From a virus (Duplodnaviria > Heunggongvirae > Uroviricota > Caudoviricetes), in the IMG/VR virus record IMGVR_UViG_2908572912_000001, positions 1-34,457 of that record: DNA of 34,457 nucleotides; one strand, written 5' to 3'. The translations under genes and the position numbers were made by a program. Below, in pieces: positions 1,917 through 26,997 of the stretch. The notes under the pieces are model-generated. The model was not told the origin of the DNA. It searched no databases and worked only from the letters and a program-made list of their open reading frames with translations. Every line of letters starts with the position of its first letter. Positions within the stretch are counted from its first letter, which is position 1.

Positions 1917-2202
1917 GTGAGTCACCTCTGACTGAGAGTTTACTCACTTAGCCGCGTGTCCACTATTGCTGGGTAAGATCAATTTCACCTTTATCCCGCC
2001 CCTTAGACAGAATGTTATAATCTGAACCCACAACAGCGTTTGTACCGGAGCTGGTCCGTTGCAAAATGCTCACCGGGAGAATTCAGATATTCCCTCTATC
2101 ACACTCTGTACATATCACAGCCAAAGGACAGACCAGATTGAAGTGGTAAAACCGATCGTGCACACTACGCAGTCTCACAACTAACAAGAGGTTATTATCC
2201 TG

Positions 2203-2607
2203 ATGGATCAGGTCGTTGTTTTTCAAAAGATGTTTGAGCAAGTGAGAAAAGAGCAAAACTTCTCCTGGTTTTATTCAGAATTAAAACATCACCGTATTGC
2301 ACATTACATTTATTATCTGGCTACGGATAACATCAGAATTATTACTCACGATGATACGGTTTTGTTATTAAGAGGAACCAGGAACCTGTTAAAAGTTAGT
2401 ACGACCAAGAACCCTGCTAAAATAAAAGAGGCCGCATTGCTTCATATTTGCGGAAAATCTACATTTCGGGAATACTGTTCAACACTGGCAGGCGCGGGCG
2501 TTTTCCGGTGGGTTACTGATGTTAATCATAACAAACGCAGTTACTACGCCATTGATAATACGCTTTTATATATTGAAGATGTAGAAAATAATAAACCATT
2601 AATCTAG
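2203..2607 (+). CDS. ycgX: YcgX-like protein (134 aa)
   Basis: 134-aa ORF; assignment from remembered K-12 synteny (ycgX next to iraM) and length. Low certainty on the name. Confidence 0.5.
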   Translation: MDQVVVFQKMFEQVRKEQNFSWFYSELKHHRIAHYIYYLATDNIRIITHDDTVLLLRGTRNLLKVSTTKNPAKIKEAALLHICGKSTFREYCSTLAGAGVFRWVTDVNHNKRSYYAIDNTLLYIEDVENNKPLI

Positions 2608-2809
2608 CTAAAGTTGGATACTTAAGAAATGCTTCATAATTCAGTAAGGCATTAGCATAATGGAAATAAAAGTGCAGAGACTATCTCTATGGATGATTAA
2701 TACTGTCTTTTTATTGTCACCCATAAATAATCACCAGACTAATACTATCAACTTGATATTTGAAATGTGATCACTTGACTTTTGATACGTTATTTTATAA
2801 CGGTTAACA

Positions 2810-2846
2810 TATTTATAAAAACAACGGCCGTGCCACACGTCCGTTT
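2810..2846. terminator. Diverged copy of the icd 3'-flank hairpin/terminator (aaaacaacggccgtgccacacgtccgtttcaatacttaac)
   Basis: About 45 bp alignable with 3681-3725, with compensatory changes in the hairpin stem. Confidence 0.4.
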
Positions 2847-3306
2847 CAATACTTAACGCACATGTATTTTGGTTTAGTCATCATCCGGTTATATGTATTT
2901 TAGCCAGGAACAGGTTAAATCATTCCTATATAACTCAAAAATTGAAACCTTATTCTCATGTCATGCTTATATTCATTATTATCGTTATATAAAAAGGCAA
3001 CCATAATATTTAGCAAATTGGCACAAAGTAGCATAAAGGCTATGTTTTAATTACAGGATGTTCAGTCATTTGAATGTATAACATTATAGCTAAACAAATC
3101 TAAAACGAAGTCAATAATTTATTGCTTTCACAAAATCTCATTTTGTTTAACATCCATTGAGATTCCTTGCTTTAAATTTTATTTTATATAAGCCATCATT
3201 TTAATTAATTTATTTTTTTGAGGGGGGGGTAATATACTCATATGCAAAATCAAGAAATAAACATCCTAATGAACCATATTAAATACCGTGGGATAAGACA
3301 TAACAA

Positions 3307-3630
3307 ATGAAGTGGATAGTAATTGACACGGTAATTCAACCTACATGTGGTATATCTTTTTCAGCCATATGGGGTAATATGAAAATGATCATCTGGTATC
3401 AATCTACTATATTTCTCCCTCCTGGCAGTATATTTACACCGGTTAAGTCTGGTATTATCCTTAAGGATAAAGAATATCCTATTACTATTTATCACATCGC
3501 ACCATTCAACAAGGATTTATGGAGTTTACTCAAAAGCAGTCAAGAGTGTCCTCCAGGAGAAAGCAAAATAACAAATAAATGTTTACATAATAGTTGCATT
3601 ATAAAAATATGCCCATATGGGCTCAAGTAA
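3307..3630 (+). CDS. iraM: IraM-like anti-adaptor protein (107 aa)
   Basis: 107-aa AT-rich ORF adjacent to icdC, as in K-12 (iraM/ycgW next to the icd pseudo-3'-end); sequence recognised from memory. Confidence 0.65.
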
Positions 3631-3671
3631 TGGGCTTCATATAAATATGCTCGATATGCTATTAATAATAT

Positions 3672-3710
3672 CCACATAAATAAAACAACGGGCGTGTTAT
3701 ACGCCCGTTT
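3672..3710 (-). terminator. icd rho-independent terminator (hairpin aacgggcgtataacacgcccgtt followed by a T-run on the minus strand); also placed to stop iraM
   Basis: GC hairpin plus T-run immediately after the icd stop codon. Confidence 0.6.
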
Positions 3711-3732
3711 CAATATTTAACACATGGAGAGA

Positions 3733-3900
3733 TTACATGTTTTCGATGATCGCTTCACCAAACTCTGAACATTTCAGCAGCTTAGCGCCTTCCATCAGAC
3801 GTTCGAAGTCATAAGTTACGGTCTTGGCATTGATTGCGCCTTCCATACCTTTAACAATCAGGTCAGCCGCTTCAGTCCAACCCATATGGCGCAGCAGTAT
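3733..3900 (-). pseudogene. icdC: Displaced 3' end of icd (isocitrate dehydrogenase), last 55 codons only = icdC-type prophage junction
   Basis: Translation [55 protein letters not shown] equals the Icd C-terminus; similarity stops abruptly at 3900. Confidence 0.9.
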
Positions 3901-4596: not shown

Positions 4597-5718
4597 TTAG
4601 TCATCAACCGCGACTCCTGCACAATCATGGGCTATTGCCAGCAATTGTTTTTTAATTGCTTTAGCATCTACCGTCATATCTACTGTAGCAAAATGGATCT
4701 TATGTCCCTGAGTGACAACATACTCATTAAGCATATAGCCAACAGCTGGATGAAGTAGAAGACCAGCGGCATTGAGCGAAAGCGGATCCGTCTTGTTCTC
4801 CTGTGTTCTAAGGTAGGTATATAGCTGATAAATATAGCCATTACGTAGTGATTGCTCCCGATGCCAACCCTTTGTCAGAATCGAATTAAATTTGGTATCG
4901 ATAATAATACGCCGCTGGGCAGTCTTGTGTTCCAGAATAATGTCTGACTTCATTGTCGGGAAAATCTCTGCACTACCTGCACTTTGATCGCTCAACGCCC
5001 ATTTCAGCTCTTTCCCTGCAGAGACCTGCCAAGTTGTTTTGGCAAGGTGTACACGATATAAGCCAGCGATACCTTTTTCAAATAGTCTTCTCATCCAGTA
5101 AAGGTTATTTGAGGGCGCAGGTAAAAGATATTGGCCTTGATCTTCGGTCGGCATCAGCAGTTCAAAAGCTAATCGTGCGGCATCGACCATCGGTTTATCT
5201 GCGGCATCATGGCGTCCAAAACGCCACACTGAGGGTAATTCGTGGGGGGCAGGATATCCTCCATTTATCCCCTCACGGCGAAGTGATATTGCCATAAAAT
5301 GGCAATCTGCCGCCAAAGACGGTTTCACTATGATTGAGGCCAGACGTTCTAACGCACAGCGAACATAGCGATTTCGGGGGGTGTTGAGGGTTATGTCTTG
5401 AAAATGGCAGGCAACCTGTCCCCGTTCCAGTAGTTGATGACTGGCAGTATACAGTATGTCAATGCGCCCTCTCACCCGGTTCAGGGCCGCATGACAAGTT
5501 TGGTATCCCATATTTAAATTGCGACGTCGGCGCAGCGTAATCTCATGAAGGAGGATTGTCGCCACCAGGTCGGGGATTTCTGCTGGGTTATCTTCTACTG
5601 CGATCTGATTGCGCCCTAACTGACGAAACAGATCTGAAGCGTACAGCATCAGCATCCAGATATTTCGCATGGGAATACGTGATGCTGTATGTTGCTCACT
5701 CCCGGTTATTGTCGTCAT
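4597..5718 (-). CDS. mcrC: McrC-like endonuclease subunit (PD-(D/E)xK) of a McrBC-type modification-dependent restriction system
   Basis: N-terminal IPMRNIWMLMLYA resembles McrC IPVRNIYYMLTYAW; C-terminal IIIDTKF...NGYIYQLYTYL matches the McrC nuclease motif (VDAKY...NLYQLMNYL). 4-bp overlap with upstream mcrB-like gene. Confidence 0.8.
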   Translation of the reverse strand: MTTITGSEQHTASRIPMRNIWMLMLYASDLFRQLGRNQIAVEDNPAEIPDLVATILLHEITLRRRRNLNMGYQTCHAALNRVRGRIDILYTASHQLLERGQVACHFQDITLNTPRNRYVRCALERLASIIVKPSLAADCHFMAISLRREGINGGYPAPHELPSVWRFGRHDAADKPMVDAARLAFELLMPTEDQGQYLLPAPSNNLYWMRRLFEKGIAGLYRVHLAKTTWQVSAGKELKWALSDQSAGSAEIFPTMKSDIILEHKTAQRRIIIDTKFNSILTKGWHREQSLRNGYIYQLYTYLRTQENKTDPLSLNAAGLLLHPAVGYMLNEYVVTQGHKIHFATVDMTVDAKAIKKQLLAIAHDCAGVAVDD

Positions 5719-7697
5719 TTTGCTAATAACACTTTTCTGGCTTCATCGACTTTATTTGGAGCATCGAACCAATATTCGGCGAGCAAAGGGCAGATCTCTG
5801 TATCAACGACTTGTTCATACCAAGCCTGGGCATCGTTGATTTTTTGGCCGATAGCTGGGGTGACATAGCTGTGACCGATACAAAACTGTGGTCCTAAGGT
5901 AACATCTTTTGCCAGCATATCGTTAAGTACCGTCAGTCGAGATTTGATGAATGCTAACATGTCAAAATCAATTGCGTAATTATAATTTACCCAGTTTCTC
6001 CACGCGTCATTAAAAGCTGGCTTTAGATCGATAAACGCGAAACGACGGCGCAGCGCTAGGTCAAGTAGTGCGAGTGAGCGGTCTGCAATATTCATCGTAC
6101 CGATGATATATAGATTCTCAGGAATGTATATTTTTTCATCATCATTTTTAGGATAGGAAAGAGATAATGCCTCAGTCGGCGTGCGTTTATCTGCTTCCAT
6201 CAACGTGAGTGTTTCACCGAAGATTTGCGCCGGATTGCCACGATTAATCTCTTCAATTATCACCACATATTTCGAGGTAGGATTATTGACTGCAGTTTTG
6301 ATTGCATTTACAAAAGGTCCATCAATTAGCGTCAATTGCCCTTCTTTACCTGGACGCCAGCCGCGAATAAAGTCTTCGTAAGAGAGGTTCGGGTGAAATT
6401 GCACCGCGCTAATACGCTCAGGTGCTTTTTCTCCCATCAAGCAGTACGCCAGACGTCGCGCTAACCAGGTTTTTCCAGTTCCGGGTGGTCCTTGTAATAT
6501 CAGGTTTTTCTTGTCGATCAGGCGCTGAAGTGTGAGTTGGATCTTAGCCTCTTCCAAGAAACAGCCATCCTGCACCAGATGACTGATGTCATAAGGAACG
6601 TGAGTGAGTTTTGGCAACGGCGCACTCTCTTCGACAGTTTCCTCAGTTATCGTCTGGGATTCGTTTTTCTCAAAATTCAGGTATTCATAATTTCCGGACT
6701 CAAGGGACTTTAACTCATCATCATTGCATAGTTTCTGTAGATAAAAGTAGATTGAGCTTGTAACTGTTTTGCTCTCAGGATGCTCTACCTTGAATACGTC
6801 CAAGTAGTTTTCTTCCAACTCCGAAGCAGTGAAATAAGGGCCATTTTTTTTCAGGCATAACGCCTTAATTTTATTCAGTAAAGAGGCTTTCCACGTTCTA
6901 TTTGCCACCTCATCTTTAGACTGGCTAAGATCTGTATTCCACGCTGATAAAGAAAGTTCTGGGAAAGAATGAACCGGATAGTTTGGTTGGGTAAAGACCT
7001 CGTTCAGCGCCCGCATAAGACTCAGGTAACTTTGTCCACTACAGCGACCTTTTGCCCCGTTTTTAATGATCTTAATGTTTAACACTGTCTGAATGTAATA
7101 CTGCGACTGGCTATCTAAAGTAGGGTAGAACCAAGGACGGGTCCAGTACAACCCCATGGTGAGATTCCAACCGACATTCATTACTGTAGAAGCGATGTCA
7201 TATGCGGCAGTGAAGTCTGCAGAGTTAGTATTCTGGTTATCCGCAAAGGTCATTGCCTGCGAGAACATTTCCCACAAGCATTCAATGTCATTAGGGTCGC
7301 GTGACTTTTCATAACCAAAGAACCAAGATTTTTGGTTATTCAACAGCGGGATTCCGGCAAAGGAGTCAGGAATCGGTTCGTTCACGCCCAACAAATTCGC
7401 TAGCTTGGCAGCAATAATTTTGCGATTGCTGTCGGTCAAGTTACGATTGAACAAGCCCATAGTAGTAAACGGACAAATGTCTTTTAAGGGAAAGATCTCT
7501 CCCATAATAGATTTGTCCTGCAGATGGGACATTCCTTCCACACCTGAGGCAATTAGATGAATACCTTTGACTAATTCATCTCTACGATTTCGCCAAGTCA
7601 GTAACGCGTTGGCAAAAGCCTCATAAAAACTAGCCCAAGCAAATTTGCCATCATGTTCTGCTGTATCCACGGGAACTCCATTATACTTGTTGAGCAA
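5715..7697 (-). CDS. mcrB: McrB-like AAA+ GTPase (C-terminal 270 aa) with a long, unrecognised N-terminal domain of about 390 aa
   Basis: C-terminal LILQGPPGTGKTWLARRLAYCL, VVIIEEINRGN, YIIGTMNIADRSLALLDLALRRRF align with EcoK McrB GTPase motifs; N-terminal region has no similarity I recognise. Confidence 0.8.
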   Translation of the reverse strand: MLNKYNGVPVDTAEHDGKFAWASFYEAFANALLTWRNRRDELVKGIHLIASGVEGMSHLQDKSIMGEIFPLKDICPFTTMGLFNRNLTDSNRKIIAAKLANLLGVNEPIPDSFAGIPLLNNQKSWFFGYEKSRDPNDIECLWEMFSQAMTFADNQNTNSADFTAAYDIASTVMNVGWNLTMGLYWTRPWFYPTLDSQSQYYIQTVLNIKIIKNGAKGRCSGQSYLSLMRALNEVFTQPNYPVHSFPELSLSAWNTDLSQSKDEVANRTWKASLLNKIKALCLKKNGPYFTASELEENYLDVFKVEHPESKTVTSSIYFYLQKLCNDDELKSLESGNYEYLNFEKNESQTITEETVEESAPLPKLTHVPYDISHLVQDGCFLEEAKIQLTLQRLIDKKNLILQGPPGTGKTWLARRLAYCLMGEKAPERISAVQFHPNLSYEDFIRGWRPGKEGQLTLIDGPFVNAIKTAVNNPTSKYVVIIEEINRGNPAQIFGETLTLMEADKRTPTEALSLSYPKNDDEKIYIPENLYIIGTMNIADRSLALLDLALRRRFAFIDLKPAFNDAWRNWVNYNYAIDFDMLAFIKSRLTVLNDMLAKDVTLGPQFCIGHSYVTPAIGQKINDAQAWYEQVVDTEICPLLAEYWFDAPNKVDEARKVLLAK

Positions 7698-8039
7698 TGA
7701 TAATTTATCTGTGTGAGTTTTAACATATTACTATCAGTTATAGAAAAATTTAACTACCCGATACAGAGAGCGGCATGCTGAATTTGACCTGACTTGCTTC
7801 CAACCAATTAAAATCAACTTATTTATCAATTGGTTATTTTGGCGCATAGCGGTCATCAAGGGAATATCGCGTTGTCATAAGGTGTCGAGGCTCGGAGGTT
7901 CAAATCCTCTCATGCAAAAAATAAATAAAATTAATGACGGTTGGAAATTATTCAATACATACACTCTCGAAAGTGCATCAACCAACCGCAGCACGTCTTG
8001 CATACGGCGTGTCTGCAGTTTTATATAATCCTGGCTGGA

Positions 8040-8262
8040 AACCTCTTATACAAAGTCGATACACCAATATCATAGATGATCGCCACCTTCTGACGCGGGA
8101 CTTTTGATGCAATTAATCGCCCGGCCTGCGCCCATTGTTCTGATGTAAGTTTAGGACGACGTCCACCAATTCCTCCCTGTGCGCGAGCATCTTCCAGTCC
8201 AACTTTTGTTCAGTCATCAATCAGTTCACGCTTCATTTCAACCAGGGCTCCATCACATGGAA
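8040..8262 (-). pseudogene. pin: pin-type DNA invertase (serine recombinase) 3' fragment with internal stop
   Basis: Minus-strand translation ...GALVEMKRELIDD* then ...GLEDARAQGGIGGRRPKLTSEQWAQAGRLIA..PRQKVAIIYDIGVSTLYKRFPA matches the Hin/Gin/Pin C-terminal HTH region; N-terminal catalytic domain absent. Confidence 0.6.
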
Positions 8263-8737
8263 AAATAAAAAAAAACCATCGATGTTGACGTGTCAATGTT
8301 ACCTGTCAGGCTACGGAAATCCCCCCCCTTACCCGCAGCTACTCGGTAAGTATAATAAGATGTTTCCTGCTCCTTCCTAACCTGTCCAGTTTCCAGACAA
8401 TTAAAGTATCACCTTATATAAGAGACTGCAGAGCGCACTTTAACCTAGGTCGTTCTGAAATAGTTGCAGATTCGATTAATCAACGATTATACTCCCCGGC
8501 ACTCCAGAGGATCTGGTAAACATAAAGTCAGAGCTTGGGTATACTGGCACACAAATGGCAGATCTTGCAGGTGCAGCCAGTCATAGCCAGTGGCGAAAAT
8601 ACACGAGTGGTTCTGAGCCCCGCGCCATGTCATCACATATCTTGTTTTTTTATTGCTACCAATCTGACTTTGAGTACTAATGAGCTAGATAGAATTGTTT
8701 GTAAAATAAAAAAAATTGGAACAGTGATTATATAAAA

Positions 8738-9826
8738 ATGAAGAAGGTAAAATCAATTCACTATTTGCGAGGTGTAGCAGCATTACTCGTTGTTGCATAT
8801 CACAATAAACAATACCTAAATGAAGTTTACGCACAAAAAGATCTAGGTGATTTATTGTTTATTAGTGGTGGTTTTGGGGTTGATCTGTTTTTTATTATAA
8901 GTGGATTTATAATAATGTTATCGAGTCAAAAAAAAGAAACAAATTCCCCTATTAACTTTATGACCAGGCGTTTTTTCAGGATTTACCCTGTATTTTTCAT
9001 TTGCACAATCTTATTCTTTTTATTGAACCCAGTCTTCACCGAAAGTGAATTATTGCGTTCATTGTTTCTGCTTCACCTGGACTATTATTCAGAAGCGCCA
9101 TTCTTCGGATACAACGTGCTTTATCCAGCATGGACATTAACCTTTGAAGTCTATTTTTATTTCATTTTTATGCTTGCAATATCGCTGAGTCATAAAAACA
9201 GATTATTAATATCAGTTATTGCATTGATAGTCCCGCTACTTCTCATACAGTTGAAATTTTCCAACAGCCTTTCTCTATCAAGTAAGTTTACGATTGGTGA
9301 TACAGGTCATTGGCATATTGGCTTTCTAAACTTAATGTCATCACCCATGCTGTTAGAATTCGTTTATGGGATGTTTCTGTATATAATACACAGAAAATTT
9401 AAATATATAAAAAACGCAAAGGCGATATCATTCCTTTTGGTTTCATTTGGTGTTTGCTCATATTTTTATCAATTCAGATTTGGTCATGGCCCTTTAAACT
9501 TCGGATTGTGGGCAGCCTCCATAATTACGGGAGTTTTACTTTATGAAGTTAACTTCGGATTAAGGGAAAATAAAATACTCAGTAAGCTAGGTGATATCTC
9601 TTACTCTCTGTATTTATCCCATGCGATAGTAATGCTATTTTTAATTAATTTTAAGGATTTCATTCCGCTTTATGAAAAACCTGGGTTCTCTAAGTTTTCA
9701 TTCATTATTGCTCTTAGCTTGTTCTTATCATTCTTTATTTATAAATATATTGAAACTCCATTCATTAATATCGGAAAAACAATATCCAAAAGACTTTCAA
9801 AACCAACATTAACTTATAGCGAATAG
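8738..9826 (+). CDS. Acyltransferase family 3 integral membrane protein (OafA/Oac-like O-acyltransferase), AT-rich cargo gene
   Basis: 362 aa, about 10 hydrophobic segments, N-terminal YLRGVAALLVVAYH and FFIISGF motifs typical of acyltransferase-3; very low GC relative to neighbours. Confidence 0.75.
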   Translation: MKKVKSIHYLRGVAALLVVAYHNKQYLNEVYAQKDLGDLLFISGGFGVDLFFIISGFIIMLSSQKKETNSPINFMTRRFFRIYPVFFICTILFFLLNPVFTESELLRSLFLLHLDYYSEAPFFGYNVLYPAWTLTFEVYFYFIFMLAISLSHKNRLLISVIALIVPLLLIQLKFSNSLSLSSKFTIGDTGHWHIGFLNLMSSPMLLEFVYGMFLYIIHRKFKYIKNAKAISFLLVSFGVCSYFYQFRFGHGPLNFGLWAASIITGVLLYEVNFGLRENKILSKLGDISYSLYLSHAIVMLFLINFKDFIPLYEKPGFSKFSFIIALSLFLSFFIYKYIETPFINIGKTISKRLSKPTLTYSE

Positions 9827-10130
9827 TACTCACAAGAGCAAGTGGCGCAATAGTAAAAATCTGTTGCGCCCACATTATAAATCGCTCTCCAATAGCAAAG
9901 TATCTTAGTGACTAAGCATTACCTAAGTTATCACTATAAACACAAAATACTACGCGGAGCGGAATAGTGCTCTCCTTTTGACCAGCTATTGCATGGTAAA
10001 TAGTGGGGCTGTTTTTCTATTTGACCGAGCTGTATCTGCCCCTCGATATGTTGCCCTCACGCAATATTCCAAATGTCAGTAAAACGGCAGGTGTAGCGGT
10101 ATTATGCGCAGCTATTTAGGAGTTGCTGGG

Positions 10131-10463
10131 CTATCGCTTCGAAGGTGGAGGCCAGACGGGGTTTACTGTATCAACACGGTTCAGCAATACCCGATATGTT
10201 TTCCATGCGGCCAGAAACGCTTTCTCTTCCTCCGTTGCGATCTCCAGCTCAGCAACAGTCTGAACGTACCAGGAACAGCCTCCTTCAGGGCTTGAAGGAT
10301 ATTTCACGTTAATCCCGTTAAGATCATCGCTGCCGGGAACGTTCGTCGAGGCATGAAGATACCCCGCGCTCAGCGTGGACTGATGTTCAGACGCCCATGC
10401 AGGCGCACCGGATACGACCAGACAGATGGCTGCGGACAAAATGGCTGCACAAACTTTACGCAT
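10131..10463 (-). pseudogene. lom: lom outer-membrane protein gene, frameshifted after about 55 codons
   Basis: [55 protein letters not shown] matches lambda Lom N-terminus, then diverges into an unrelated frame. Confidence 0.7.
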
Positions 10464-10486
10464 AATTACCTCTCGCTTTTCTGCAA

Positions 10487-10518
10487 TAAAAAAGGCGTCA
10501 TTCCTGACGCCCTTTATT
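10487..10518. terminator. Bidirectional hairpin terminator between J and lom (ggcgtca ttcc tgacgcc flanked by A-run and T-run)
   Basis: Perfect 7-bp stem with A/T runs on both sides. Confidence 0.5.
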
Positions 10519-10533
10519 GGGGTTATAACAATT

Positions 10534-13310
10534 TCAACGAATACTGATGCCGGAAGCAGCCTTTTTGGTCACAATCACCGTACAGTCGGTGATATTGCCT
10601 GCCCCCTGATTGCCTTTCTGGAAAATCTTAAACTCCAGAGTGACGCTTCCCCTGCCACTCGGCATATCAATAACCGCACTGTAACTACCGGGAATGGCCC
10701 CTTTAGTTTCTCTGGATGCGATTAATACGCCGTTTTTGCGAACTTCAAAACCATACCCCGTGTACCTTGTACCTCCCGGGTTATCACCACTTCCCGGATC
10801 GTCATACGCTATACCGTTAAAGATAATGGGCGGAATAATGATTTGACGGTCAAAGTTATGATCATCGCTGATGGTGACTGTAACCGTCCCGTCTGGTGTT
10901 TCCGTGTTACCCCACGTACCAGCCTTTTTCGGGAATGATTTGGATACTGTTTTAACAAAATCACCTCTGACCTGATTCGCCTCCAGCATACCCTTAATCG
11001 TACAGTTTTCATTTATCGTGACGTTGTTGAGCGTCCCGGCGTTCGCATTCACACTGCCACTGATATCCGCATTTTTAGCGGTCAGCTTTCCGTCCGGTGT
11101 CAGGGAAAATACCGGTGGATTTCCACCACTGGTAATGGTGGGGGCCGTCAGGCGTTTGAGGAACACGTCGTTCATGAATATCTGGTTGCCCTGCGCCACA
11201 AACATCGGCGTTTCATTCCCGTTTGCCGGGTCAATAAACGCGATACGATTGGCGGCAACCAGAAACTGGCTCAGTTTGCCTTCCTCTGTATCCTCCATGC
11301 TGAGGCCAAGCCCCGCGACATAATGCTTACCGTCTTCGGTCTGCTCAATTTTGACGCCCCACATGGCATTCCATTTATCGTTGGCGTCCTTCCACTCTTT
11401 CGAAAACTCCTCCAGTCTGCTGGCGTTATCCTCCGTCAGCTCGACTTTTTCCAGCAGCTCCTTGCCGAGATGGGATTCGGTTATCTTGCCTTTGAAAAAA
11501 TCCAGGTAACCTTCCGCATCATCGCTCGCCCGACCAACGGCTTCCACGAATGCCGATTTGCCAACGGTGTTCACACTGCGGATATAAAAGTAATAATCAT
11601 GGCCCGGTTTGATATTGATACTGGCGGCTATCCAGTACAGCGCCGTACCAAGATAGCGGGCTGTGGTTTCAACCTGCCTGATATCGGTAATCCGCTTTTC
11701 CGAGAACCAGAACTCAAACTGTACCGTCGGGTCATAAACGGCAAGATGCGGCGTGGCGGTTATCTGAAAATAGCCCGGCGTCAGCTCAATCCTCGACGGT
11801 GTTGCCGGTGCGGCAATCCGGAACGATACCGACGCCGGATCGCCCTGCTGTCCCCACGCATTTACCGCCCGGACTGTCAGCGTGTACCGCCCCAGCGCCA
11901 GTTGCGTGAAGCGGTATGTGGTTTCCGTCGTCCGGGCCGTGCTGACCAGCCGCTCACTGCCGTCATCCGCTGCCACGGTCAGGCGAAGCATAAAGCTCAC
12001 CCCCTTCACCACCTTCGGCGTGTCCCAGCGCGCCAGCACCTGATATTCCCCGCTGTCTGCGGTGACTTCGGCAGTCAGGTGCTGCACCGCTGGCGGCGTG
12101 ACACCATTCACCGTGCCGCTCTGGTCGCCGTCAAAGTGCGCCCCGTTATCCACGATGGCCTCTTTTTCCGGTACATGCTGCACGGCGGTGATGGCATACG
12201 TGCCGTCATCGTTCTCACGGATACTCACGCAGCGGAACAGACGCTGGCGCAGCGTCGGCAGCTTCAGCCCCCATACGCTGTATCCGGCAACGCCGTCAGG
12301 AACACGGCTCACTTTTACCTTCACGCCGTCGGTGACGGACTGGACCTCCACGCTGACCGGATTGCCACTTCCGTCAACCAGGCTTATCAGCGTGGTACCG
12401 GAGGATGGCAGCGTGATTTCACGGTCAAGCGTCAGCGTCCGGGTCTGGCTGTTCACCGCCAGCACGCGCCCGCCGATGCTGATCCCCGCATAGTCATCAT
12501 CGCAGATTTCAATAACATCACCCGGCACATGGCGAAGCCCTTCGGCACCCACGCTGAAATCCACGGTCTGCGTCTCCAGCAGCTCCGTTTTAATCAGCCA
12601 CAGCCCGGCGCGGTGTGCCTGCCCCCGGCTGGTACAGCCAAAGGCATCCATCTTCGTGACGTTACGACCGTAACGGGCAATGGCCTGCGTGTCCTCCACA
12701 AGCTCTGTCGCCGTCTCCCAGCCGTTATCCGGGTCAATCCAGTTCACCTCAACGGCATTATGGCGGTCCTTCAGGGCGCTGAAGCTGTAGCGGAACGGCG
12801 CGCCATCATCCGGCATCACCACATTACTGCGGTTATAGGTCCACACCTTATCTGATGGTCGGTCCTGCACGAACGTCAGCGTCTGCCCGTTCCATACCGG
12901 CATACAGCGCATCGCCGAGCAGAAATCACTGAGCACATCCCACGCCTTGCGCTGTGTGGTCAGGTACGCATTACAGGTGATGCGCGGCTCCGTGCCGCCA
13001 AAGCCGTCCGGCACTGACTGGTCGCAGTACTGGCCGATGACATACAGCGCCCATTTATCCACATCCGCCGCACCAAGACGTTTCCCCATGCCGTAGCGCG
13101 GATGGGTCAGCATATCCCACAGACACCAGGCCATGTTGTTGCTGTACGCTGGCCTGAACGTTCCGTCCCAGATACCGCTGTATTGCCGCGTCTGCGGGTT
13201 ATAATTCGACGGCACCTGCAGAATACGCCCGCGCAGATGATAATTACGGCTCACCTGCTGGCTGCCGAACTGCTCCGAGTCCACCTGCACGCCGACCAGT
13301 GCCGTGTTCG
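10534..13310 (-). pseudogene. J: Tail tip/host-specificity protein J, C-terminal ~918 codons only (N-terminal ~200 codons deleted)
   Basis: Translation matches lambda J from ...[19 protein letters not shown] to the C-terminal receptor-binding region; no ATG start, upstream sequence is nu1 in another frame. Confidence 0.9.
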
Positions 13311-13819
13311 GGTATCAGTTCATCCAGCGCGGCTGCTTTGTTCATGGCTTTGATGATATCCCGTTTCAGGAAATCAACATGTCGGTTTTCCAGTTCCGGA
13401 AAACGCCGCTGCACCGACAGGGGGATCCCGTCGAGAATACTGGCAATTTCACCTGCGATCCGCGACAGCACGAAAGTACAGAATGCGGTTTCCACCACTT
13501 CAGCTGAGTCTCTGGCATTCTTCAGTTCCTGTGCGTCGGCCTGCGCACGCGTAAGTCGATGGCGTTCGTACTCAATAGTCCCTGGCTGGAGATCTGCCTC
13601 GCTGGCCTGGCGCAGTTCTTCAACCTCCCGGCGCAGCTTTTCGTTCTCAATTTCAGCATCCCTTTCGGCATACCATTTTATAACGGCGGCAGAGTCATAA
13701 AGCACCTCATTACCCTTGCCACCGCCTCGCAGAACGGGCATTCCCTGTTCCTGCCAGTTCTGAATGGTACGGATACTCGCACCGAAAATGTCAGCCAGCT
13801 GCTTTTTGTTGACTTCCAT
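13311..13819 (-). pseudogene. nu1: Terminase small subunit Nu1, 3'-truncated (about 169 of 181 codons), fused out of frame to J
   Basis: MEVNKKQLADIFGASIRTIQNWQEQGMPVLRGGG... matches lambda Nu1 to ...ALDELIP, then reads into J-derived sequence and stops at 13244. Confidence 0.9.
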
Positions 13820-16833: not shown

Positions 16834-17916
16834 ATGAAAAAATTAACAGTGGCAATTTCTGCTGTAGCTGCATCAGTACTGATGGCGATGTCTGCTCAGG
16901 CAGCTGAAATTTATAATAAAGACAGTAACAAGCTGGATCTATATGGGAAAGTTAATGCCAAGCACTACTTCTCCTCTAATGATGCAGATGATGGTGATAC
17001 TACTTATGCCCGTCTTGGCTTCAAAGGTGAAACCCAAATCAACGATCAACTGACTGGTTTCGGTCAGTGGGAATATGAATTCAAAGGCAACCGCGCTGAA
17101 TCTCAAGGCTCCTCCAAAGACAAAACCCGTCTTGCATTTGCAGGCCTGAAATTCGGGGACTACGGCTCAATCGATTACGGCCGTAACTACGGTGTAGCAT
17201 ATGACATCGGTGCGTGGACTGACGTTCTGCCAGAATTCGGTGGCGATACCTGGACCCAAACAGATGTGTTCATGACTGGTCGCACCACTGGTGTTGCAAC
17301 TTATCGTAACAACGACTTCTTTGGTCTGGTTGATGGTCTGAACTTTGCTGCTCAGTATCAGGGTAAAAATGACCGCACTGACGTAACTGAAGCTAATGGT
17401 GATGGTTTCGGTTTCTCCACTACTTATGAGTATGAAGGATTCGGTGTAGGTGCAACCTATGCTAAATCTGACCGCACTAATAATCAGGTTATCTACGGTA
17501 ACAACAGCCTGAATGCATCTGGTCAAAATGCTGAAGTATGGGCAGCTGGTCTGAAATATGATGCGAACAACATCTATCTGGCCACCACCTATTCTGAAAC
17601 CCAGAACATGACTGTTTTTGGTAATAACCATATTGCCAACAAAGCACAAAACTTCGAAGCTGTTGCACAATATCAGTTCGACTTCGGCCTGCGTCCATCC
17701 GTTGCTTACCTGCATTCTAAAGGAAAAGACTTGGGTGTTTGGGGTGATCAGGACCTGGTTGAATATGTTGATGTAGGTGCAACCTATTACTTCAACAAAA
17801 ATATGTCCACTTTTGTTGACTACAAAATCAACCTGATTGATAAGAGCGATTTCACGAAAGCATCTGGCGTTGCTACCGATGATATCGTTGCTGTAGGTAT
17901 GGTTTACCAGTTCTAA
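16834..17916 (+). CDS. nmpC: OmpC/OmpD-family general porin NmpC, apparently intact (signal peptide, C-terminal ...VYQF)
   Basis: 360 aa, signal peptide [23 protein letters not shown], porin beta-barrel signature and terminal Phe; lies between Q and the lysis cassette on the opposite strand, as in DLP12. Confidence 0.9.
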
Positions 17917-21685: not shown

Positions 21686-23581
21686 TTAATTATTTTTCTT
21701 TAACTTGAAATTTCTTCCCATTGCTAGTGTTCTTCGAAGATTCGAATCATAAGCTGGTTGATAATATCTATCATAAAAATCCTTAATTGTCTGATGGTAA
21801 GTATCCAGCATCAAACCATAAAACCCCATGACCTTAAGATAATCCACCAAGGGAAATAAATAATCATCAGTCTGAACATCAGTATCAATATTATTTTTTT
21901 GTTTTTTAACTTCAAATTTGTATAAGTTTAACTCACCCTTATCCATCGTGCATGAAAAAAGGTCGTCAAAAATCAAATCAATTTTTGTCATAGGAACTCG
22001 TTCTTTTCCAGACATTATAGGTAGAATATCAATACCTAAGAGCGAACCTAATACAAAGTCGTAATGAAGCGAAATCACTGAGTCATTCGATGTCGAGTTG
22101 CCTTTGATAAATACTCTACTTAGTGCCGAGTCAAAAACATTCTCAACTCTCTCTCTCGTCATGTTTGCGACATCTACAACCCCCATATCACGAGAAGCTT
22201 TTATTGTGATTTCATCTATAAATGCTTTGGAATCTAGTGAATGTAAAAACAACATGAAGTTATCTAACTGTTCAGAGCATTTAATAGCCACCATAAGATT
22301 TTCGTATATATCTTTTTTATACTCAATCGGTAAATTTGCTACCGCAAAAGCAGCATAAAATTCTTGCACTGATTTATGCAGAAAAACATACCTATTATTT
22401 CCCTCAGGTTGGATAAGGCAAGTTATCTCAATAAGATCATCTATAAAGTTTGATGCATCTTCTTTAAGATAACCTTCTGTTTCAATAGCATCTTCAGCAT
22501 ATCTAAGCAACTCCTCTCCCCAAAACTCAAATTTCTCCTCAATCAGTGCGTTATAGCAAATAGCTGAAAAACACAATTTAGCTTTTTCACCAATAATGTT
22601 TGATTTTTTCTCGCGCGTATATACTTTTATTTTATCATGCCTTGCATATAAGGTGTCAAAGAGGCTTCGATAAAACTCTATTATATTATTTGGAATATCA
22701 TTCATATAAGGATAACAATAATACAAAAGAGTAACTAAAATTGGATTGCAAATAGTTCCCTCAAGTTCTTCTTTATCACATAGTAAATCCGCCAAGACTT
22801 TAAACGAGGCATCACTACTTGAGAATCTGTCATTTTTCGATAAAGAATGAAGAATACAAATCTTATCAGAAATATTTAGCTTATCTATAAAAATATTATA
22901 CACATCAGTAGTATAACATATATCTGTATTTGGTCTCGTTGTTGCGATAATTGGTGTGTTAAAATGATAATGAATGTTTTTTATTTCATTCATCATCATA
23001 GTTCGCTCTTCATGTTTAACCTCATCAAATCCATCCAACATTAAAACGACTCTTTGGGATTGCAGTAATATTTTCAAGCTATCCTCTGAACACCCCACAC
23101 CAAATGAATTAAGAATGTCTGCCAGATAAGCAATAATATTTGCATTCTTCACCCTTCTTAATTCAATAAAAAAAGGCATCCGTTCTGATTTTTTTATTTC
23201 CTCGCTAAACAACTTGCGTAAAATAGTACTTTTCCCTTGCCCCGCTATACCGACTATATTTACAATACCATGAAATGGTAAAGTGACCCCATCTTTTATA
23301 ACGACCTTGTCTTTATTAGATGCCACCTCAACAGTTAACGGATAATAAATATCATCTAAAAAAATATCATAATCAGCGTTGTGCAAAGTTCTCATTTTCA
23401 GAGATGGTAGCACATGCTTTCTTAAATAATTTTCTCTTCCGAGGGGATCATTTAATTGTTCGAGTATAACCTTGCCTTCATCTAGGTCCCTAGCCCAAGG
23501 TTTAGAGAGCAATACTTCTGTTATTTTTTCCGCAGCTTTTCCTACTGTGCTATTAATAATAGTCGCAAGAAACTCATCCAT
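21686..23581 (-). CDS. NACHT-family STAND NTPase (bacterial NLR-like), candidate antiphage protein; ~110-aa N-terminal region, central NACHT, ~350-aa C-terminal region
   Basis: Walker A GIAGQGKST, NACHT-type Walker B VVLMLDGFDEV, sensor-1-like IIATTRP; GC ~30 percent island. Start placed at ATG (MDEFL...) preceded by GGTGA; track alt-start gives 23638. Confidence 0.8.
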   Translation of the reverse strand: MDEFLATIINSTVGKAAEKITEVLLSKPWARDLDEGKVILEQLNDPLGRENYLRKHVLPSLKMRTLHNADYDIFLDDIYYPLTVEVASNKDKVVIKDGVTLPFHGIVNIVGIAGQGKSTILRKLFSEEIKKSERMPFFIELRRVKNANIIAYLADILNSFGVGCSEDSLKILLQSQRVVLMLDGFDEVKHEERTMMMNEIKNIHYHFNTPIIATTRPNTDICYTTDVYNIFIDKLNISDKICILHSLSKNDRFSSSDASFKVLADLLCDKEELEGTICNPILVTLLYYCYPYMNDIPNNIIEFYRSLFDTLYARHDKIKVYTREKKSNIIGEKAKLCFSAICYNALIEEKFEFWGEELLRYAEDAIETEGYLKEDASNFIDDLIEITCLIQPEGNNRYVFLHKSVQEFYAAFAVANLPIEYKKDIYENLMVAIKCSEQLDNFMLFLHSLDSKAFIDEITIKASRDMGVVDVANMTRERVENVFDSALSRVFIKGNSTSNDSVISLHYDFVLGSLLGIDILPIMSGKERVPMTKIDLIFDDLFSCTMDKGELNLYKFEVKKQKNNIDTDVQTDDYLFPLVDYLKVMGFYGLMLDTYHQTIKDFYDRYYQPAYDSNLRRTLAMGRNFKLKKNN

Positions 23582-23968
23582 TTTTTCACCACATTCATTA
23601 ACCAATACGTGGTGCATTCTTACAAGACTCAGTAACAATTGTCAATCATAGGTTTTCGCATGATTGCAAAACGCCATAAACAATTGTAGCACCATAATTT
23701 TAAACACTATAAATATACAACCTTCCTACAAGCATTCAGTACATCGCTTAATCACAGGGCTTGAATATATAGTAAGGAATCGATATTAATCACCTCATCT
23801 ACTTTAAACATCTTACACACCTATAATTTATAATAGTCAACACGAGGTCATCATATTAAACATGCAATTACAAACATTCATTTTTATATAAATTTTCATG
23901 ATTTAACCGTAGAGCGACGGTAATAAATTTCATATACAAGGATTTAAGCTCCCATACGTTTTCTATTA

Positions 23969-24925: not shown

Positions 24926-25035
24926 TATCAATTCCTATTGGTATTGCAATGAATAAATAATAGCAATGCGTATTAATCCAAGCAATAGCAAAACGTGTTT
25001 TGACCATCAATACGCAAGCGTATAAATTAAAACTT
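24926..25035. promoter_or_regulatory. Immunity-region divergent promoters and operators: pR candidate on minus strand (-35 TTGCTT 24980-24985, 17-bp spacer, -10 TATTAT 24957-24962); pRM candidate on plus strand (-35 TTGACC 24999-25004, -10 TATAAA 25021-25026) giving near-leaderless cI
   Basis: Consensus-like sigma70 hexamers with 16-17 bp spacing; spacers contain TAGCAAT/GCAATAGCAA and TACGCAAGCGTA motifs. Confidence 0.55.
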
Positions 25036-25728
25036 ATGAAAAAAGAAACTCTTGCTGATCGCTTAAACCTAGCGATGGAACAATCTGGAATGTCTCAAGG
25101 CGCTCTTGCAAAGGCGTCTGGCGTAGCTCAACCCACAATCTGGAGACTGACAAGCGGCAATGCGCGCGGCTCAACAAAAATTGTTGAAATAGCTAATGCA
25201 TTGGGTGTTCGAACAGAATGGCTCTCTTCAGGCATAGGCCCGATGAGAAATGACGGTCAACAATCAGGGAAGCCTGCTGTCAGCCATTCCAAATACTTCA
25301 AAATTGACGTTCTTGATATAGAAGTCAGTGCCGGGCCGGGTGTAATCAACCGTGAGTTTGTAGAAGTTCTACGCTCGGTTGAATACTCGTTTGACGATGC
25401 TCGTCACATGTTCGATGGCAGGAAGGCGGAAAATATCCGCATCATTAACGTGCGTGGTGACAGCATGTCAGGAACGATCGAACCAGGTGATCTGCTGTTC
25501 GTTGATATCACGGTTAAATCTTTCGACGGTGATGGTATCTATGCGTTTCTGTATGACGACACCGCCCATGTAAAACGCCTGCAAATGATGAAGGATAAGC
25601 TGCTGGTTATCTCTGATAACAAGAGCTACTCACCGTGGGACCCGATCGAGAAAGACGAGATGAACCGCGTGTTCATCTTCGGGAAAGTCATCGGGAGCAT
25701 GCCGCAGACATATAGAAAGCATGGGTAG
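25036..25728 (+). CDS. cI: CI-type prophage repressor (N-terminal HTH, C-terminal LexA/S24 autopeptidase-like domain)
   Basis: HTH MSQGALAKASGVAQPTIWRL; C-terminal VRGDSMSGTIEPGDLLFVD and HVKRL (Ser/Lys dyad pattern). Track alt-start at 25000. Confidence 0.85.
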   Translation: MKKETLADRLNLAMEQSGMSQGALAKASGVAQPTIWRLTSGNARGSTKIVEIANALGVRTEWLSSGIGPMRNDGQQSGKPAVSHSKYFKIDVLDIEVSAGPGVINREFVEVLRSVEYSFDDARHMFDGRKAENIRIINVRGDSMSGTIEPGDLLFVDITVKSFDGDGIYAFLYDDTAHVKRLQMMKDKLLVISDNKSYSPWDPIEKDEMNRVFIFGKVIGSMPQTYRKHG

Positions 25729-25857: not shown

Positions 25858-26997
25858 ATGGCAGCGGTTGAATTTCAATTGTCTAGGAAGATGATTGATT
25901 GGATAGCAAATTCTCAAGGAGTTTCTATCGAAACTCTTGCTGACCAAGTCATGCCCAAAAAGATTAATAAATTTCTTAACGGAGTGGTAAGTAAATCCGC
26001 AGCAGAAAAACTGGCAAAAATTGGAGGAATCCCTTTCGGTTTTTTATTTCTTGAAACGCCACCAACTCCAGCCAAACCCAAGATCCCTGACTTAAGGCAA
26101 GCTATAAATAGCCGTGAGTTAGGAAAAGATTTTTTTGATGTTTACTATGATATAGAATATAAACTTGAGTGGTACAAAGACTATTTAAGAGAAAATGGTA
26201 ATGATGATCCACTCGATTTTATTGGTAAATTTAAATTTAATAGAAAATTAAATTATAAGGTTGTTGCTACAGACATAGCAAACACAATACATTTTGATAT
26301 ACAAAAAGAGATAAAAAATGTCACTTTTGAGAGCTATTTTTCTAAAGTGGCAAAACTAATAGAAGACACTGGCGTATTAGTTTTCAAGAATGGTGTTGTG
26401 GGTAATAATAATAAAAGAAAACTTGACACGCGAGAGTTTCGTGGTTTCTGTATATCTGATAGCGTTGCTCCGATCATTTTTGTAAATAGCTCGGACGCGT
26501 TATCTGCGCAGGTATTTACATTATTTCATGAGGTGGCTCATCTTTGGCTTGGAGTCGATGGAGTCTCTGGGTGGGACACAGAAAAAAACATAGAATCTTT
26601 TTGTAATAAAGTTGCTGCTGAAATCTTAATGCCTGATAATCTCTTCAAATCTTTCTGGCTTAATGCATCCAGCGATAATAATTATTATCGAGTAAAAGAG
26701 GTTTCTAAGTTATTTAAGGTTAGTGATTTCGCTTGTGCAATCAAAGCGTTACAATTAGATTTGATAGAAAGAAACACTTTGGAGATAATTAAAGATCAAG
26801 CTTACAATAAGCCCAAAAAAGAATCCAATGGTGGTTCTTTCTTTAACACATTACCTGTTCGTAACAGTCCAAAACTTACGAATATAATAATTTCCAAAGC
26901 AATGTCTCAACAATTACCATTAAGGGAAGCAGGCGTACTGCTAAATGTAAAAGCAGATACAGTTGTTGAATTTTATAAAAAACGAGAATCTCTATGA
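25858..26997 (+). CDS. HTH domain fused to ImmA/IrrE-family HExxH metallopeptidase (COG2856-like)
   Basis: HEVAHLWLG zinc-binding motif at about residue 215; N-terminal HTH-like segment; GC ~33 percent; located where rexA-rexB sit in lambda. Confidence 0.75.
   Translation: MAAVEFQLSRKMIDWIANSQGVSIETLADQVMPKKINKFLNGVVSKSAAEKLAKIGGIPFGFLFLETPPTPAKPKIPDLRQAINSRELGKDFFDVYYDIEYKLEWYKDYLRENGNDDPLDFIGKFKFNRKLNYKVVATDIANTIHFDIQKEIKNVTFESYFSKVAKLIEDTGVLVFKNGVVGNNNKRKLDTREFRGFCISDSVAPIIFVNSSDALSAQVFTLFHEVAHLWLGVDGVSGWDTEKNIESFCNKVAAEILMPDNLFKSFWLNASSDNNYYRVKEVSKLFKVSDFACAIKALQLDLIERNTLEIIKDQAYNKPKKESNGGSFFNTLPVRNSPKLTNIIISKAMSQQLPLREAGVLLNVKADTVVEFYKKRESL

Follow-up and report, generated by a model that had tools for sequence, protein, structure and literature searches.

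The window, the whole 34,457-nucleotide stretch of viral DNA analysed here, carries an intact gene for a predicted stand-alone inner-membrane O-acyltransferase of family 3 (AT3), which a lambdoid prophage at icd bears as cargo at its tail-fibre end. By analogy with the settings in which its relatives are found, the product is probably an O-antigen O-acetyltransferase that the prophage carried for lysogenic conversion with superinfection exclusion. The original prediction had named the gene as a candidate for lysogenic conversion or exclusion, and the genomic context of the relatives fits that role. The interval to which it drew attention (8040-10530) correctly brackets a pin remnant, the acyltransferase gene and a lom fragment.

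An intact, AT-rich acyltransferase gene

The open reading frame at 8738-9826 (plus strand) encodes 362 amino acids and matches the Pfam profile Acyl_transf_3 (PF01757) over positions 2-325 of 326 (E 2.6e-34; score 119.2 bits, cut-off 31 bits). This full-length match bears out the earlier assignment to the family-3 membrane acyltransferases. AT3 is the sole Pfam domain found in the protein, and phrog_3333 ('O-acetyltransferase') matches the same frame (E 2e-71). The R-X10-H motif is present as R11 and H22, invariant in 37 relatives, and the RXXR motif as R78-F-F-R81, with both arginines invariant in the same 37; D49, S55, G56, W132, E137, Y292 and H295 are further invariant residues. In OafB the first motif corresponds to Arg14/His25 in transmembrane helix 1, the RXXR site of AT3 proteins lies in helix 3 at the cytoplasmic face, and both motifs are essential in OafB, OafA and Oac (PMC9833829). 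Judged by its sequence, the window protein is a bona fide member of the AT3 family with all the defining motifs kept.

An AlphaFold2 model of the protein (pLDDT 90.4, pTM 0.89) contains 10 long helices, placed at residues 5-22, 44-62, 71-96, 129-150, 155-175, 203-218, 227-244, 255-273, 288-304 and 317-354, so that the ten-transmembrane-helix AT3 fold is predicted for it. The sole high-probability match of this model in a PDB fold search is a remote one, 8jkv_A (probability 0.98, E 0.02), which we take to be human HGSNAT, a membrane acetyl-CoA transferase. Bacterial AT3 structures were absent among the PDB fold matches, a search of the PDB by sequence gave no match, and a BFVD fold search gave one. 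No PADLOC defence-system model fits the protein. In the literature, we found no paper that mentions the RefSeq protein WP_000756238 and none that ties the e14/icd site to an acyltransferase.

The gene was originally described as AT-rich, and it is: its GC content is 32.2% (32.0% at third positions) against 44.6% for the window, and a low-GC tract extends from about 8640 to about 9950. By base composition the gene is foreign-looking. A gene of 32% GC may be subject to H-NS silencing in E. coli.

The 268-bp spacer 5' of the gene (8471-8737, plus strand) is lineage-specific, occurring in only 239 of 5426 genomes and at least 99% identical in 238 of the 239 records, and it presumably holds the acyltransferase promoter. 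One weak promoter-like match is seen on the plus strand at 8517-8545, with no excess over shuffled sequences, and neither a convincing promoter nor a convincing Shine-Dalgarno sequence was found upstream of the gene. Phase variation of the Dam/OxyR type was considered and rejected, the upstream 268 bp holding only two GATC sites (8510 and 8561), close to the chance number. Downstream, a hairpin at 9842-9873 (plus strand) starts 16 nt past the stop codon and may be a transcription terminator, though it has no U-run. The region 9820-9900 folds at -20.6 kcal/mol (z -4.5), with none of 200 shuffles as stable; the terminator scan left the hairpin uncalled.

A non-coding spacer at 9827-10160 travels with the gene and is covered only by the 30 gene-carrying genomes. 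The remaining genome matches begin at query positions 335-341, that is, at window positions 10161-10167 inside tfa-like sequence, which puts the right-hand end of the cargo at about 10160. Direct or inverted repeats of a mobile cassette were sought around the gene and yielded only short, low-identity chance pairs; neither a target-site duplication nor IS ends were found flanking it.

Of 5426 complete genomes, only about 30-34 have an intact copy of the acyltransferase gene. It is interrupted by an IS or truncated in several related genomes, and about 200 genomes of the same lineage have lost it by IS1-mediated deletion, with IS1 at about 8704. These roughly 200 genomes share only 8600-8704, and they were rejected as examples of an empty site, their junctions being those of the IS1-mediated deletions. 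Given how rarely the gene is intact and how often it is disrupted or deleted, it is dispensable. In the assembly collection, 1713 blocks carry this same allele, and nine copies of the gene vary at three sites, all synonymous.

A defective prophage at icd

The locus is a defective lambdoid prophage of E. coli at icd, the e14 site. Positions 1981-3899 match K-12 at 99.9% identity as far as the last base before icdC/e14, and the boundary between chromosome and prophage (attR side, about 3899/3900) is marked by the icdC pseudogene (3733-3897, minus strand), a duplicated 3' end of icd, at whose position relatives carry an annotated isocitrate dehydrogenase fragment. Within the prophage, an McrC-like gene (4597-5718, minus strand; NCBIfam McrC, E 2.9e-106) and an McrB-like AAA gene (5715-7697, minus strand; GTPase half of NCBIfam McrB, E 7.6e-79; Pfam AAA_5) occupy the slot of mcrA in K-12 e14. 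Precomputed Pfam matches on the called genes of relatives in this restriction region are McrBC, DUF8425 and McrB_lid. A GGTTCAAATCC-type stretch near 7880-7915 resembles the 3' half of a tRNA; as a tRNA or att remnant it was rejected, ARAGORN finding no tRNA and Rfam nothing there.

Beyond the acyltransferase, a lambda J-like tail-tip gene is reduced by N-terminal truncation to its C-terminal 918 codons (10534-13290, minus strand), which run collinear with the relatives' gpJ (95-97% identity). The truncated J abuts Nu1 (13244-13819; Pfam, E 1.1e-100), so the prophage is without its head genes and most of its tail genes. The acyltransferase sits at the tail-fibre end. Its place next to a receptor-binding gene is visible in the relatives: in all six that were compared, 476 bp separate the acyltransferase from where an S74-chaperone tail-fibre gene ends, and that fibre gene is deleted in the window. 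Prophage bodies are deleted differently in each relative genome. The window prophage is defective and has lost its tail-fibre gene; exclusion, if there is any, would by now benefit the host only.

The deletion that removed the fibre gene also explains the state of lom. By blastn, the window up to 10302 ends at position 10603 of a related locus (L001), and the window from 10300 resumes at L001 position 14379, inside lom; the junction (10300-10302) has 3 nt common to both sides, and 3,775 bp are missing relative to L001. The deletion took the S74-type side tail-fibre gene in its entirety, and lom from about codon 55 to its end. What is left is a chimeric ORF of 110 aa (10131-10463, minus strand) with matches to Pfam Ail_Lom and Caudo_TAP. 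The lom part consists of codons 1-54 including the signal peptide (10302-10463, minus strand; phrog_108 Lom), and Ail_Lom matches the ORF at profile positions 1-55 of 199 only (E 3.8e-29). The remainder holds what is left of a tail-fibre-assembly gene, tfa, namely its final ~40 codons (10131-10253, minus strand), with Caudo_TAP matching residues 68-105 of the ORF (E 1.1e-10); the region gives tfaQ/tfaR-like DNA matches, and RefSeq annotates the collinear position in L001 and L002 as 'tail fiber assembly protein, missing N-terminus'. Thus lom is truncated by the deletion and joined in frame via a spacer to the tfa remnant. It had been reported as frameshifted, and of that description the breakage stands but the frameshift does not.

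A decayed pin remnant

A decayed remnant of the serine invertase gene pin, recognised as such in the original prediction, lies upstream of the acyltransferase at 8033-8470 (minus strand). With K-12 PinE as query, tblastn aligns residues 36-181 to positions 8470-8033 (66% identity, E 4e-54), with four in-frame stops plus gaps; identity to K-12 pinE at the nucleotide level is 75%, and in relatives RefSeq annotates the corresponding piece as a recombinase with a frameshift and a truncated N-terminus. The remnant is without the first 35 PinE residues and without the promoter side. Serine recombinases have their catalytic serine within these first 35 residues, and the remnant is not an intact serine invertase with an N-terminal catalytic region.

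Crossover sites were scanned for with the consensus TTNNNNAAACCNNGGTTTNNNNAA, allowing up to 3 mismatches. The scan gave 7 matches in total against 2.95 expected; the best of them (2 mismatches) sits inside the AT3 reading frame, and the matches were rejected as chance. Hix/gix-like sites, which it had been proposed to look for near 7800-8060, did not turn up: the consensus scan found no hix/gix/pix-like site in 7700-8700. Nor were paired inverted crossover sites found flanking alternative fibre or tfa genes, and a single tfa fragment is left in the window locus.

That an e14-like invertible tail-fibre segment has been lost here, as the presence of pin had been taken to imply, is a reasonable inference, because the remnant lies at the prophage end and is oriented from the tail-fibre genes toward the restriction cargo and icdC, as is pinE in e14; because a tfa remnant stands on the opposite side of the acyltransferase; and because a related locus (L025) has an intact pinE plus an inverted pair of tfa genes. 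The acyltransferase gene may then have taken the place of the former pin-controlled segment, and the prophage would later have lost its tail-fibre, head and tail genes, leaving the host-serving acyltransferase and McrBC-like cargo.

Genomic context of the relatives and probable function

We examined the surroundings of 11 relatives with 40-54% identity to the window protein; the matches listed by a profile search of genome contigs with the family alignment are distant (25-37% identity) and were left out of this census. Seven of the 11 relatives adjoin a phage tail-fibre or tailspike gene. Two adjoin myovirus baseplate and tail-fibre genes; three are flanked by a lysis cassette on one side and a tailspike-sized gene on the other (the latter with beta-helix tail domains in one case, no Pfam match in another, and cut off at the contig edge in the third); two lie between tailspike and integrase in P22-like prophages, which is the Sf6 oac slot. 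Two relatives are found inside Salmonella O-antigen clusters beside gnd, one beside a gtrA-gtrB-gtrC-like cassette, and one in an island between flagellar operons, where a second AT3 gene and one for a GDSL/SGNH lipase accompany it. The idea that a receptor-binding domain moved together with the AT3 gene was considered and rejected: the S74 fibre of L001 and an S74 tailspike beside a 42% relative share the chaperone domain only.

By analogy with studied AT3 proteins, acetyl-CoA would bind on the cytoplasmic side at R11, R78 and R81, the acetyl group would pass through the ten-helix pore to the catalytic H22 near the periplasmic face, and a surface polysaccharide, most likely the O-antigen of the LPS, would then receive it on a sugar hydroxyl. 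Such a modification of the O-antigen would be expected to alter a serotype epitope and to mask the receptor of O-antigen-binding phages, and the S74-type side tail fibre of the original phage itself may have been among the receptor users shut out.

The acceptor might instead be another surface or periplasmic glycan (ECA, the LPS core, colanic acid or another capsule, or OPG), with an effect on phages optional. Acceptors of AT3-only proteins are diverse, including ECA for WecH, OPG for OpgC and succinoglycan for ExoZ (PMC9558356). Some sources label relatives of the window protein 'ExoZ' or 'peptidoglycan/LPS O-acetylase', the relative accompanied by a GDSL lipase lies in a non-phage island, and a conserved acceptor would explain an identical allele in 1713 blocks more easily. 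A narrowly O-unit-specific acceptor would become less obvious if the carriers were of many O-types. We consider another glycan a possibility, though an unlikely one: 10 of the 11 relatives stand by receptor-binding genes, in O-antigen clusters or by the gtr cassette, and none of the 11 is in an ECA, colanic-acid or opg locus. In addition, the protein matches no NCBIfam equivalog, and alignments indicate that it is no orthologue of WecH (33% over 61 aa, E 1e-4) or of OpgC (no significant alignment). A very doubtful extension would have a conserved surface structure as acceptor and a serotype-independent anti-adsorption effect, forming a two-layer defence module with the neighbouring McrBC-like restriction genes. 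The acceptor could then be ECA, the LPS core or the reducing-end GlcNAc that is common to numerous O-units of E. coli, and surface masking and DNA restriction would be kept at the icd prophage end while the phage decays, which would account for a near-invariant allele, present in 1713 blocks, beside differently deleted prophage bodies.

It is distinctly unlikely that the gene merely rides along, silent or without function, as a frame that looks intact in a decaying prophage but is unexpressed or has no acceptor in its host. No clear promoter or Shine-Dalgarno sequence precedes it, all its neighbours have decayed (the tail-fibre gene, lom, tfa and pin being broken or deleted), and it is often lost or interrupted in related genomes; yet the frame is full-length with every invariant family residue kept, the nine copies differ synonymously only, the gene persists while its flanks decay independently across genomes, and the strong hairpin right after the stop is as in a self-contained transcription unit. 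A need for a separate SGNH/GDSL partner, which would leave the enzyme inactive at the partner-less window locus, appears highly improbable. Two relatives do have a GDSL-domain protein as neighbour, and whether AT3-only proteins need a partner has been raised as a question, but Oac is a well-studied AT3-only protein that acetylates O-antigen in its own right (PMC9558356). Most relatives, moreover, are without an SGNH neighbour, and one of the two GDSL proteins (L019) is tailspike-sized, at 624 aa, and for that reason more likely a receptor-destroying esterase. As the relative between flagellar operons shows, the clade includes members linked neither to O-antigen nor to phage, and a partner missing from the window locus may be required by some.

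If the gene is active, some E. coli strains, commensal, ETEC and others, would gain an O-acetyl epitope on their surface, and O-serotyping, antibody recognition and O-antigen-dependent phage sensitivity could change, with a bearing on host range in phage therapy. The locus is a clear example of prophage ends that retain host-serving cargo, here a surface modifier and a restriction system, while structural genes go. It offers no new mechanism, prophage AT3 acetyltransferases beside receptor-binding genes being textbook lysogenic conversion; the sole novelty is a clade without a characterised member.

Comparison with known systems

The window shares with e14 of K-12 its integration site and the order of tail-fibre genes, pin, restriction cargo and icdC. 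Whereas e14 comprises pinE, an invertible stf/tfa segment, mcrA and icdC, the window prophage has a lambda-like body (J, lom, Nu1, P, Bet/Exo), an McrBC-like pair in place of mcrA and a dead pin, and the acyltransferase stands where e14 has its invertible segment.

The Salmonella O-antigen acetyltransferases OafA and OafB (GtrC family II) resemble the window protein in their AT3 motifs and predicted pore-type fold. They are AT3-SGNH fusions of about 640 aa, whereas the window protein, at 362 aa, has no fused SGNH domain. OafB is prophage-borne and guards against the phage's own tailspike (PMC9558356). The two Salmonella relatives (44% and 43% identity) are bounded by the last glycosyltransferase or epimerase genes of an O-antigen cluster on one side and by gnd on the other, with an IS element beside one of them; the window gene, in contrast, is prophage-borne. 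WbaK has been described as likewise inserted at the end of its cluster (PMC9558356); the two Salmonella clusters are without rml and man and are therefore not the serogroup E1 cluster of WbaK, the likeness being one of arrangement.

Sf6 Oac (OacA) is, like the window protein, a single-domain member of the same Pfam family with roughly 10 helices. The gene had been placed in the class that includes the phage O-antigen acetylases; its family membership holds, but Oac itself is distant, aligning over the N-terminal 186 aa, about half of the window protein's length, at 29% identity, including R-X10-H and RXXR. As this is the nearest characterised protein, acceptor specificity is not transferable by homology. 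We found no close relation to the characterised OacA, OacB, OacC or OacD or to ΦV10 Oac: a tblastn search through 50,697 phage records (threshold E 1e-5) matched 19 of them, with no Shigella phage or ΦV10 among them, and OacB or OacD carriers, if the collection includes them, did not surface. In setting, both genes are AT-rich prophage cargo adjoining a receptor-binding protein gene, and the slot of oac between tailspike and integrase is also held by relatives of the window protein. The Sf6 prophage is of the P22-like podovirus type, whereas that of the window gene is a lambda-like siphovirus remnant at icd. Sf6 Oac is an AT3-only O-antigen acetylase that brings about serotype conversion and the exclusion of Sf6.

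An acyltransferase of the AT3 family at the tail-fibre end of the prophage

The open reading frame at 8738-9826 (+) encodes a 362-aa protein matching Pfam Acyl_transf_3 along its full length (E 2.6e-34; 119 bits, cut-off 31) as well as the phage family phrog_3333, 'O-acetyltransferase' (E 2e-71). The gene has a GC content of 32.2%, compared with 44.6% for the window, and lies in a low-GC tract running from ~8640 to ~9950. As originally predicted, this is an AT-rich acyltransferase gene, and its predicted product is, judged by sequence, a clear member of the AT3 family.

The protein carries the R-X10-H (R11, H22) and RXXR (R78, R81) motifs, both invariant among 37 aligned relatives and both found to be indispensable in OafB, OafA and Oac (PMC9833829). 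It also keeps D49, S55, G56, W132, E137, Y292 and H295, which are likewise invariant in this alignment. The AlphaFold2 model is confident (pLDDT 90.4, pTM 0.89) and contains ten long helices. Searching the PDB by sequence returned no relative, and searching it by fold gave 8jkv_A as the sole high-probability match (prob 0.98, E 0.02), which we take to be human HGSNAT, a membrane acetyl-CoA transferase. A strong hairpin (dG -20.6, z -4.5) is found 3' of the stop codon.

The locus is a decayed prophage at the e14 site

Positions 1981-3899 match K-12 at 99.9% identity, starting at bluR and ending immediately before icdC, which places the element at the icd (e14) attachment site. Some 30 complete E. 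coli genomes are collinear with the window between 3900 and 10302, in the order icdC remnant, McrC-like gene, McrB-like gene, pin remnant, acyltransferase and tfa remnant; in these relatives the series continues with an S74-chaperone side tail-fibre gene, an intact lom and J. The McrC-like gene and the gene for a 660-aa McrB-like AAA protein (4597-7697, -) stand in place of the mcrA of K-12 e14. The N-terminal half of the McrB-like protein differs from K-12 McrB and corresponds to Pfam DUF8425 in relatives.

The remainder of the prophage is lambda-like and defective. An N-terminally truncated J (10534-13290, -) abuts the terminase small subunit gene Nu1 (13244-13819, -), indicating that all head genes and most tail genes have been deleted. 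Elsewhere in the prophage are a full-length OmpC/NmpC-type porin gene near the lysis genes (16834-17916, +; Pfam Porin_1, E 1e-152), an AT-rich gene (21686-23638, -; ~30-36% GC) for a 650-aa NACHT-domain NTPase, possibly a bacterial NLR-type antiphage gene, and an AT-rich gene (25858-26997, +) for a 379-aa protein with an M78/IrrE peptidase domain, directly downstream of a 242-aa open reading frame (25000-25728). At 724-1980, an IS3-family element (orfA 1617-1925 and orfB 754-1620, both -) replaces the bluF-bluR segment of relatives, so that the blue-light regulator genes are deleted in the window strain.

The acyltransferase probably occupies the site of a lost invertible segment

Upstream of the acyltransferase and on the opposite strand, 8470-8033 (-) aligns to residues 36-181 of K-12 PinE at 66% identity, with four in-frame stops, gaps and the first 35 residues missing. 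RefSeq labels the equivalent stretch of relatives a recombinase that is frameshifted and truncated, and the predicted decayed pin is thus confirmed. The remnant is placed as pinE is in e14, at the prophage end, pointing away from the fibre genes and towards the restriction cargo and icdC. An intact version of the arrangement is found in comparison locus L025 (baseplate, fibre, tfa, inverted tfa, fibre fragment, pinE, cargo). The acyltransferase segment, whose left limit falls within 8471-8640 and whose right limit is at ~10160, is edged by two remnants that have both lost their 5' ends, pin on one side and tfa on the other. Together, the e14-like placement and the L025 arrangement suggest that this segment sits where an invertible segment once was, supporting the proposed loss of an e14-like invertible tail-fibre segment.

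No hix/gix-like crossover site survives by consensus scan. A lone 24-bp site (9670-9693, +) that departs from the Hin/Gin/Pin crossover consensus at two positions lies inside the acyltransferase reading frame and is at chance level. We found no direct or inverted repeats bordering the segment. In comparison locus L024 the same McrBC-like module is followed directly by an intact tfa, with neither pin remnant nor acyltransferase; this part of the prophage is evidently a cargo spot prone to recombination. A stretch at 7863-7915 (GGAGGTTCAAATCCTCTC...), which separates the McrB-like gene from the pin remnant, resembles the T-arm and acceptor 3' half of a tRNA; neither ARAGORN nor Rfam calls anything there, and other genomes have this sequence 3' of an intact pinE.

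On the tfa side, lom had been described as frameshifted, which is not borne out. The alignment with relatives jumps at 10300-10302, three nucleotides common to both sides of the junction, to lom codon ~55, showing that lom was truncated by a deletion and fused in frame to spacer and the tfa remnant. Relative to locus L001, which retains the fibre gene, an intact lom and J, 3,775 bp are absent, comprising the whole fibre gene and the remainder of lom. This junction is in no complete E. coli genome of the collection. The resulting intact 110-aa reading frame (10131-10463, -) has three parts: the signal peptide and first ~54 residues of Lom (Ail/Lom, profile 1-55 of 199, matches residues 1-55), a 13-residue linker translated from what was intergenic DNA, and the final ~40 residues of a tail-fibre-assembly protein, whose C-terminus matches residues 68-105. 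Rfam also matches 10162-10345 (-) to IS009 below threshold (63.9 bits, gathering score 117, E 1.7e-13), a stretch that takes in the deletion junction and part of the tfa remnant.

Among 5426 complete E. coli genomes, ~30-34 carry the acyltransferase; in each it sits at this locus and is at least 99.5% identical. The exact protein is recorded in 1713 blocks of a larger assembly collection. The adjacent prophage body carries different deletions from one genome to the next, with the McrBC-like module and the acyltransferase retained. Loss also occurs: in ~200 complete E. coli genomes of this prophage lineage an IS1 lies at ~8704 and the acyltransferase is gone. In these genomes (L003 6116-6813 and L004 6199-6896; junctions at ~8704 and ~8783) the IS1 either shortly precedes the start of the acyltransferase or falls shortly after it, and the deletion has taken many kilobases of prophage along with the gene.

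Genomic context points to the O-antigen

The closest non-identical proteins are 50-54% identical and have generic names or none; the best phage-encoded relative, from a Pseudomonas phage, is 36% identical. Sf6 Oac aligns over the N-terminal 186 residues at 29% identity, WecH and OpgC are not orthologues, and no NCBIfam equivalog matches. Since homology alone is silent on the acceptor, we turned to the genomic context of 11 relatives (40-54% identity). Two, from Serratia, adjoin myovirus baseplate and tail-fibre genes. Three, from E. coli and Citrobacter, have a lysis cassette on one side and a tailspike-sized gene on the other (one with tail beta-helix domains, one without a Pfam match, one cut by the contig end). 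Two occupy the tailspike/integrase interval of P22-like prophages, the oac slot in Sf6, two lie beside gnd within Salmonella O-antigen clusters, and one, from Erwinia, is beside a gtrA-gtrB-gtrC-like O-antigen glucosylation cassette. The last is in an island between flagellar operons that also contains a GDSL lipase and another AT3. At the window locus itself, all six relatives compared carry the gene 476 bp from the S74-chaperone fibre gene, a class that often binds polysaccharides.

Two AT3 relatives have a GDSL/SGNH-domain neighbour: in locus L019 (3749-5623) a tailspike-sized 624-aa protein of a Mu-like prophage, possibly a receptor-deacetylating spike, and in L020 (5136-5831) a 231-aa lipase, which has two AT3 genes beside it and lies between flagellar operons.

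Predicted function and alternatives

Family membership, motifs, fold, prophage position and context are results of this analysis; the mechanism is extrapolated from studied AT3 proteins. Acetyl-CoA would bind at the arginine cluster, and the acetyl group would pass through the pore via H22 to a sugar hydroxyl of the O-unit on the periplasmic face. The altered O epitope would make it harder for O-antigen-binding phages to adsorb, among them, originally, phages of the prophage's own kind.

Ten of the 11 contexts suggest a link to the O-antigen or to the carrying phage's receptor, and we regard this full O-antigen reading as probable; that the protein O-acylates some surface glycan is a weaker claim, which we hold with greater confidence. 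Another glycan as acceptor is, in our judgement, unlikely. A silent passenger gene seems somewhat less likely again: no convincing promoter or Shine-Dalgarno sequence was found upstream, which counts against a functional gene, and several copies are truncated or broken by IS elements. On the side of function, nine copies taken from separate genomes vary at three positions, each of them synonymous. Dependence on an SGNH partner, missing here, is very improbable.

The suggested role in lysogenic conversion or superinfection exclusion is accordingly plausible and strengthened by the context of relatives, though not demonstrated. Our literature search found no paper naming this protein or an acyltransferase at the e14 site. 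A close member of none of the characterised Oac lineages, the acyltransferase is an uncharacterised addition to a well-known class, and its predicted function likens it to the Oac-type lysogenic-conversion acetylases.
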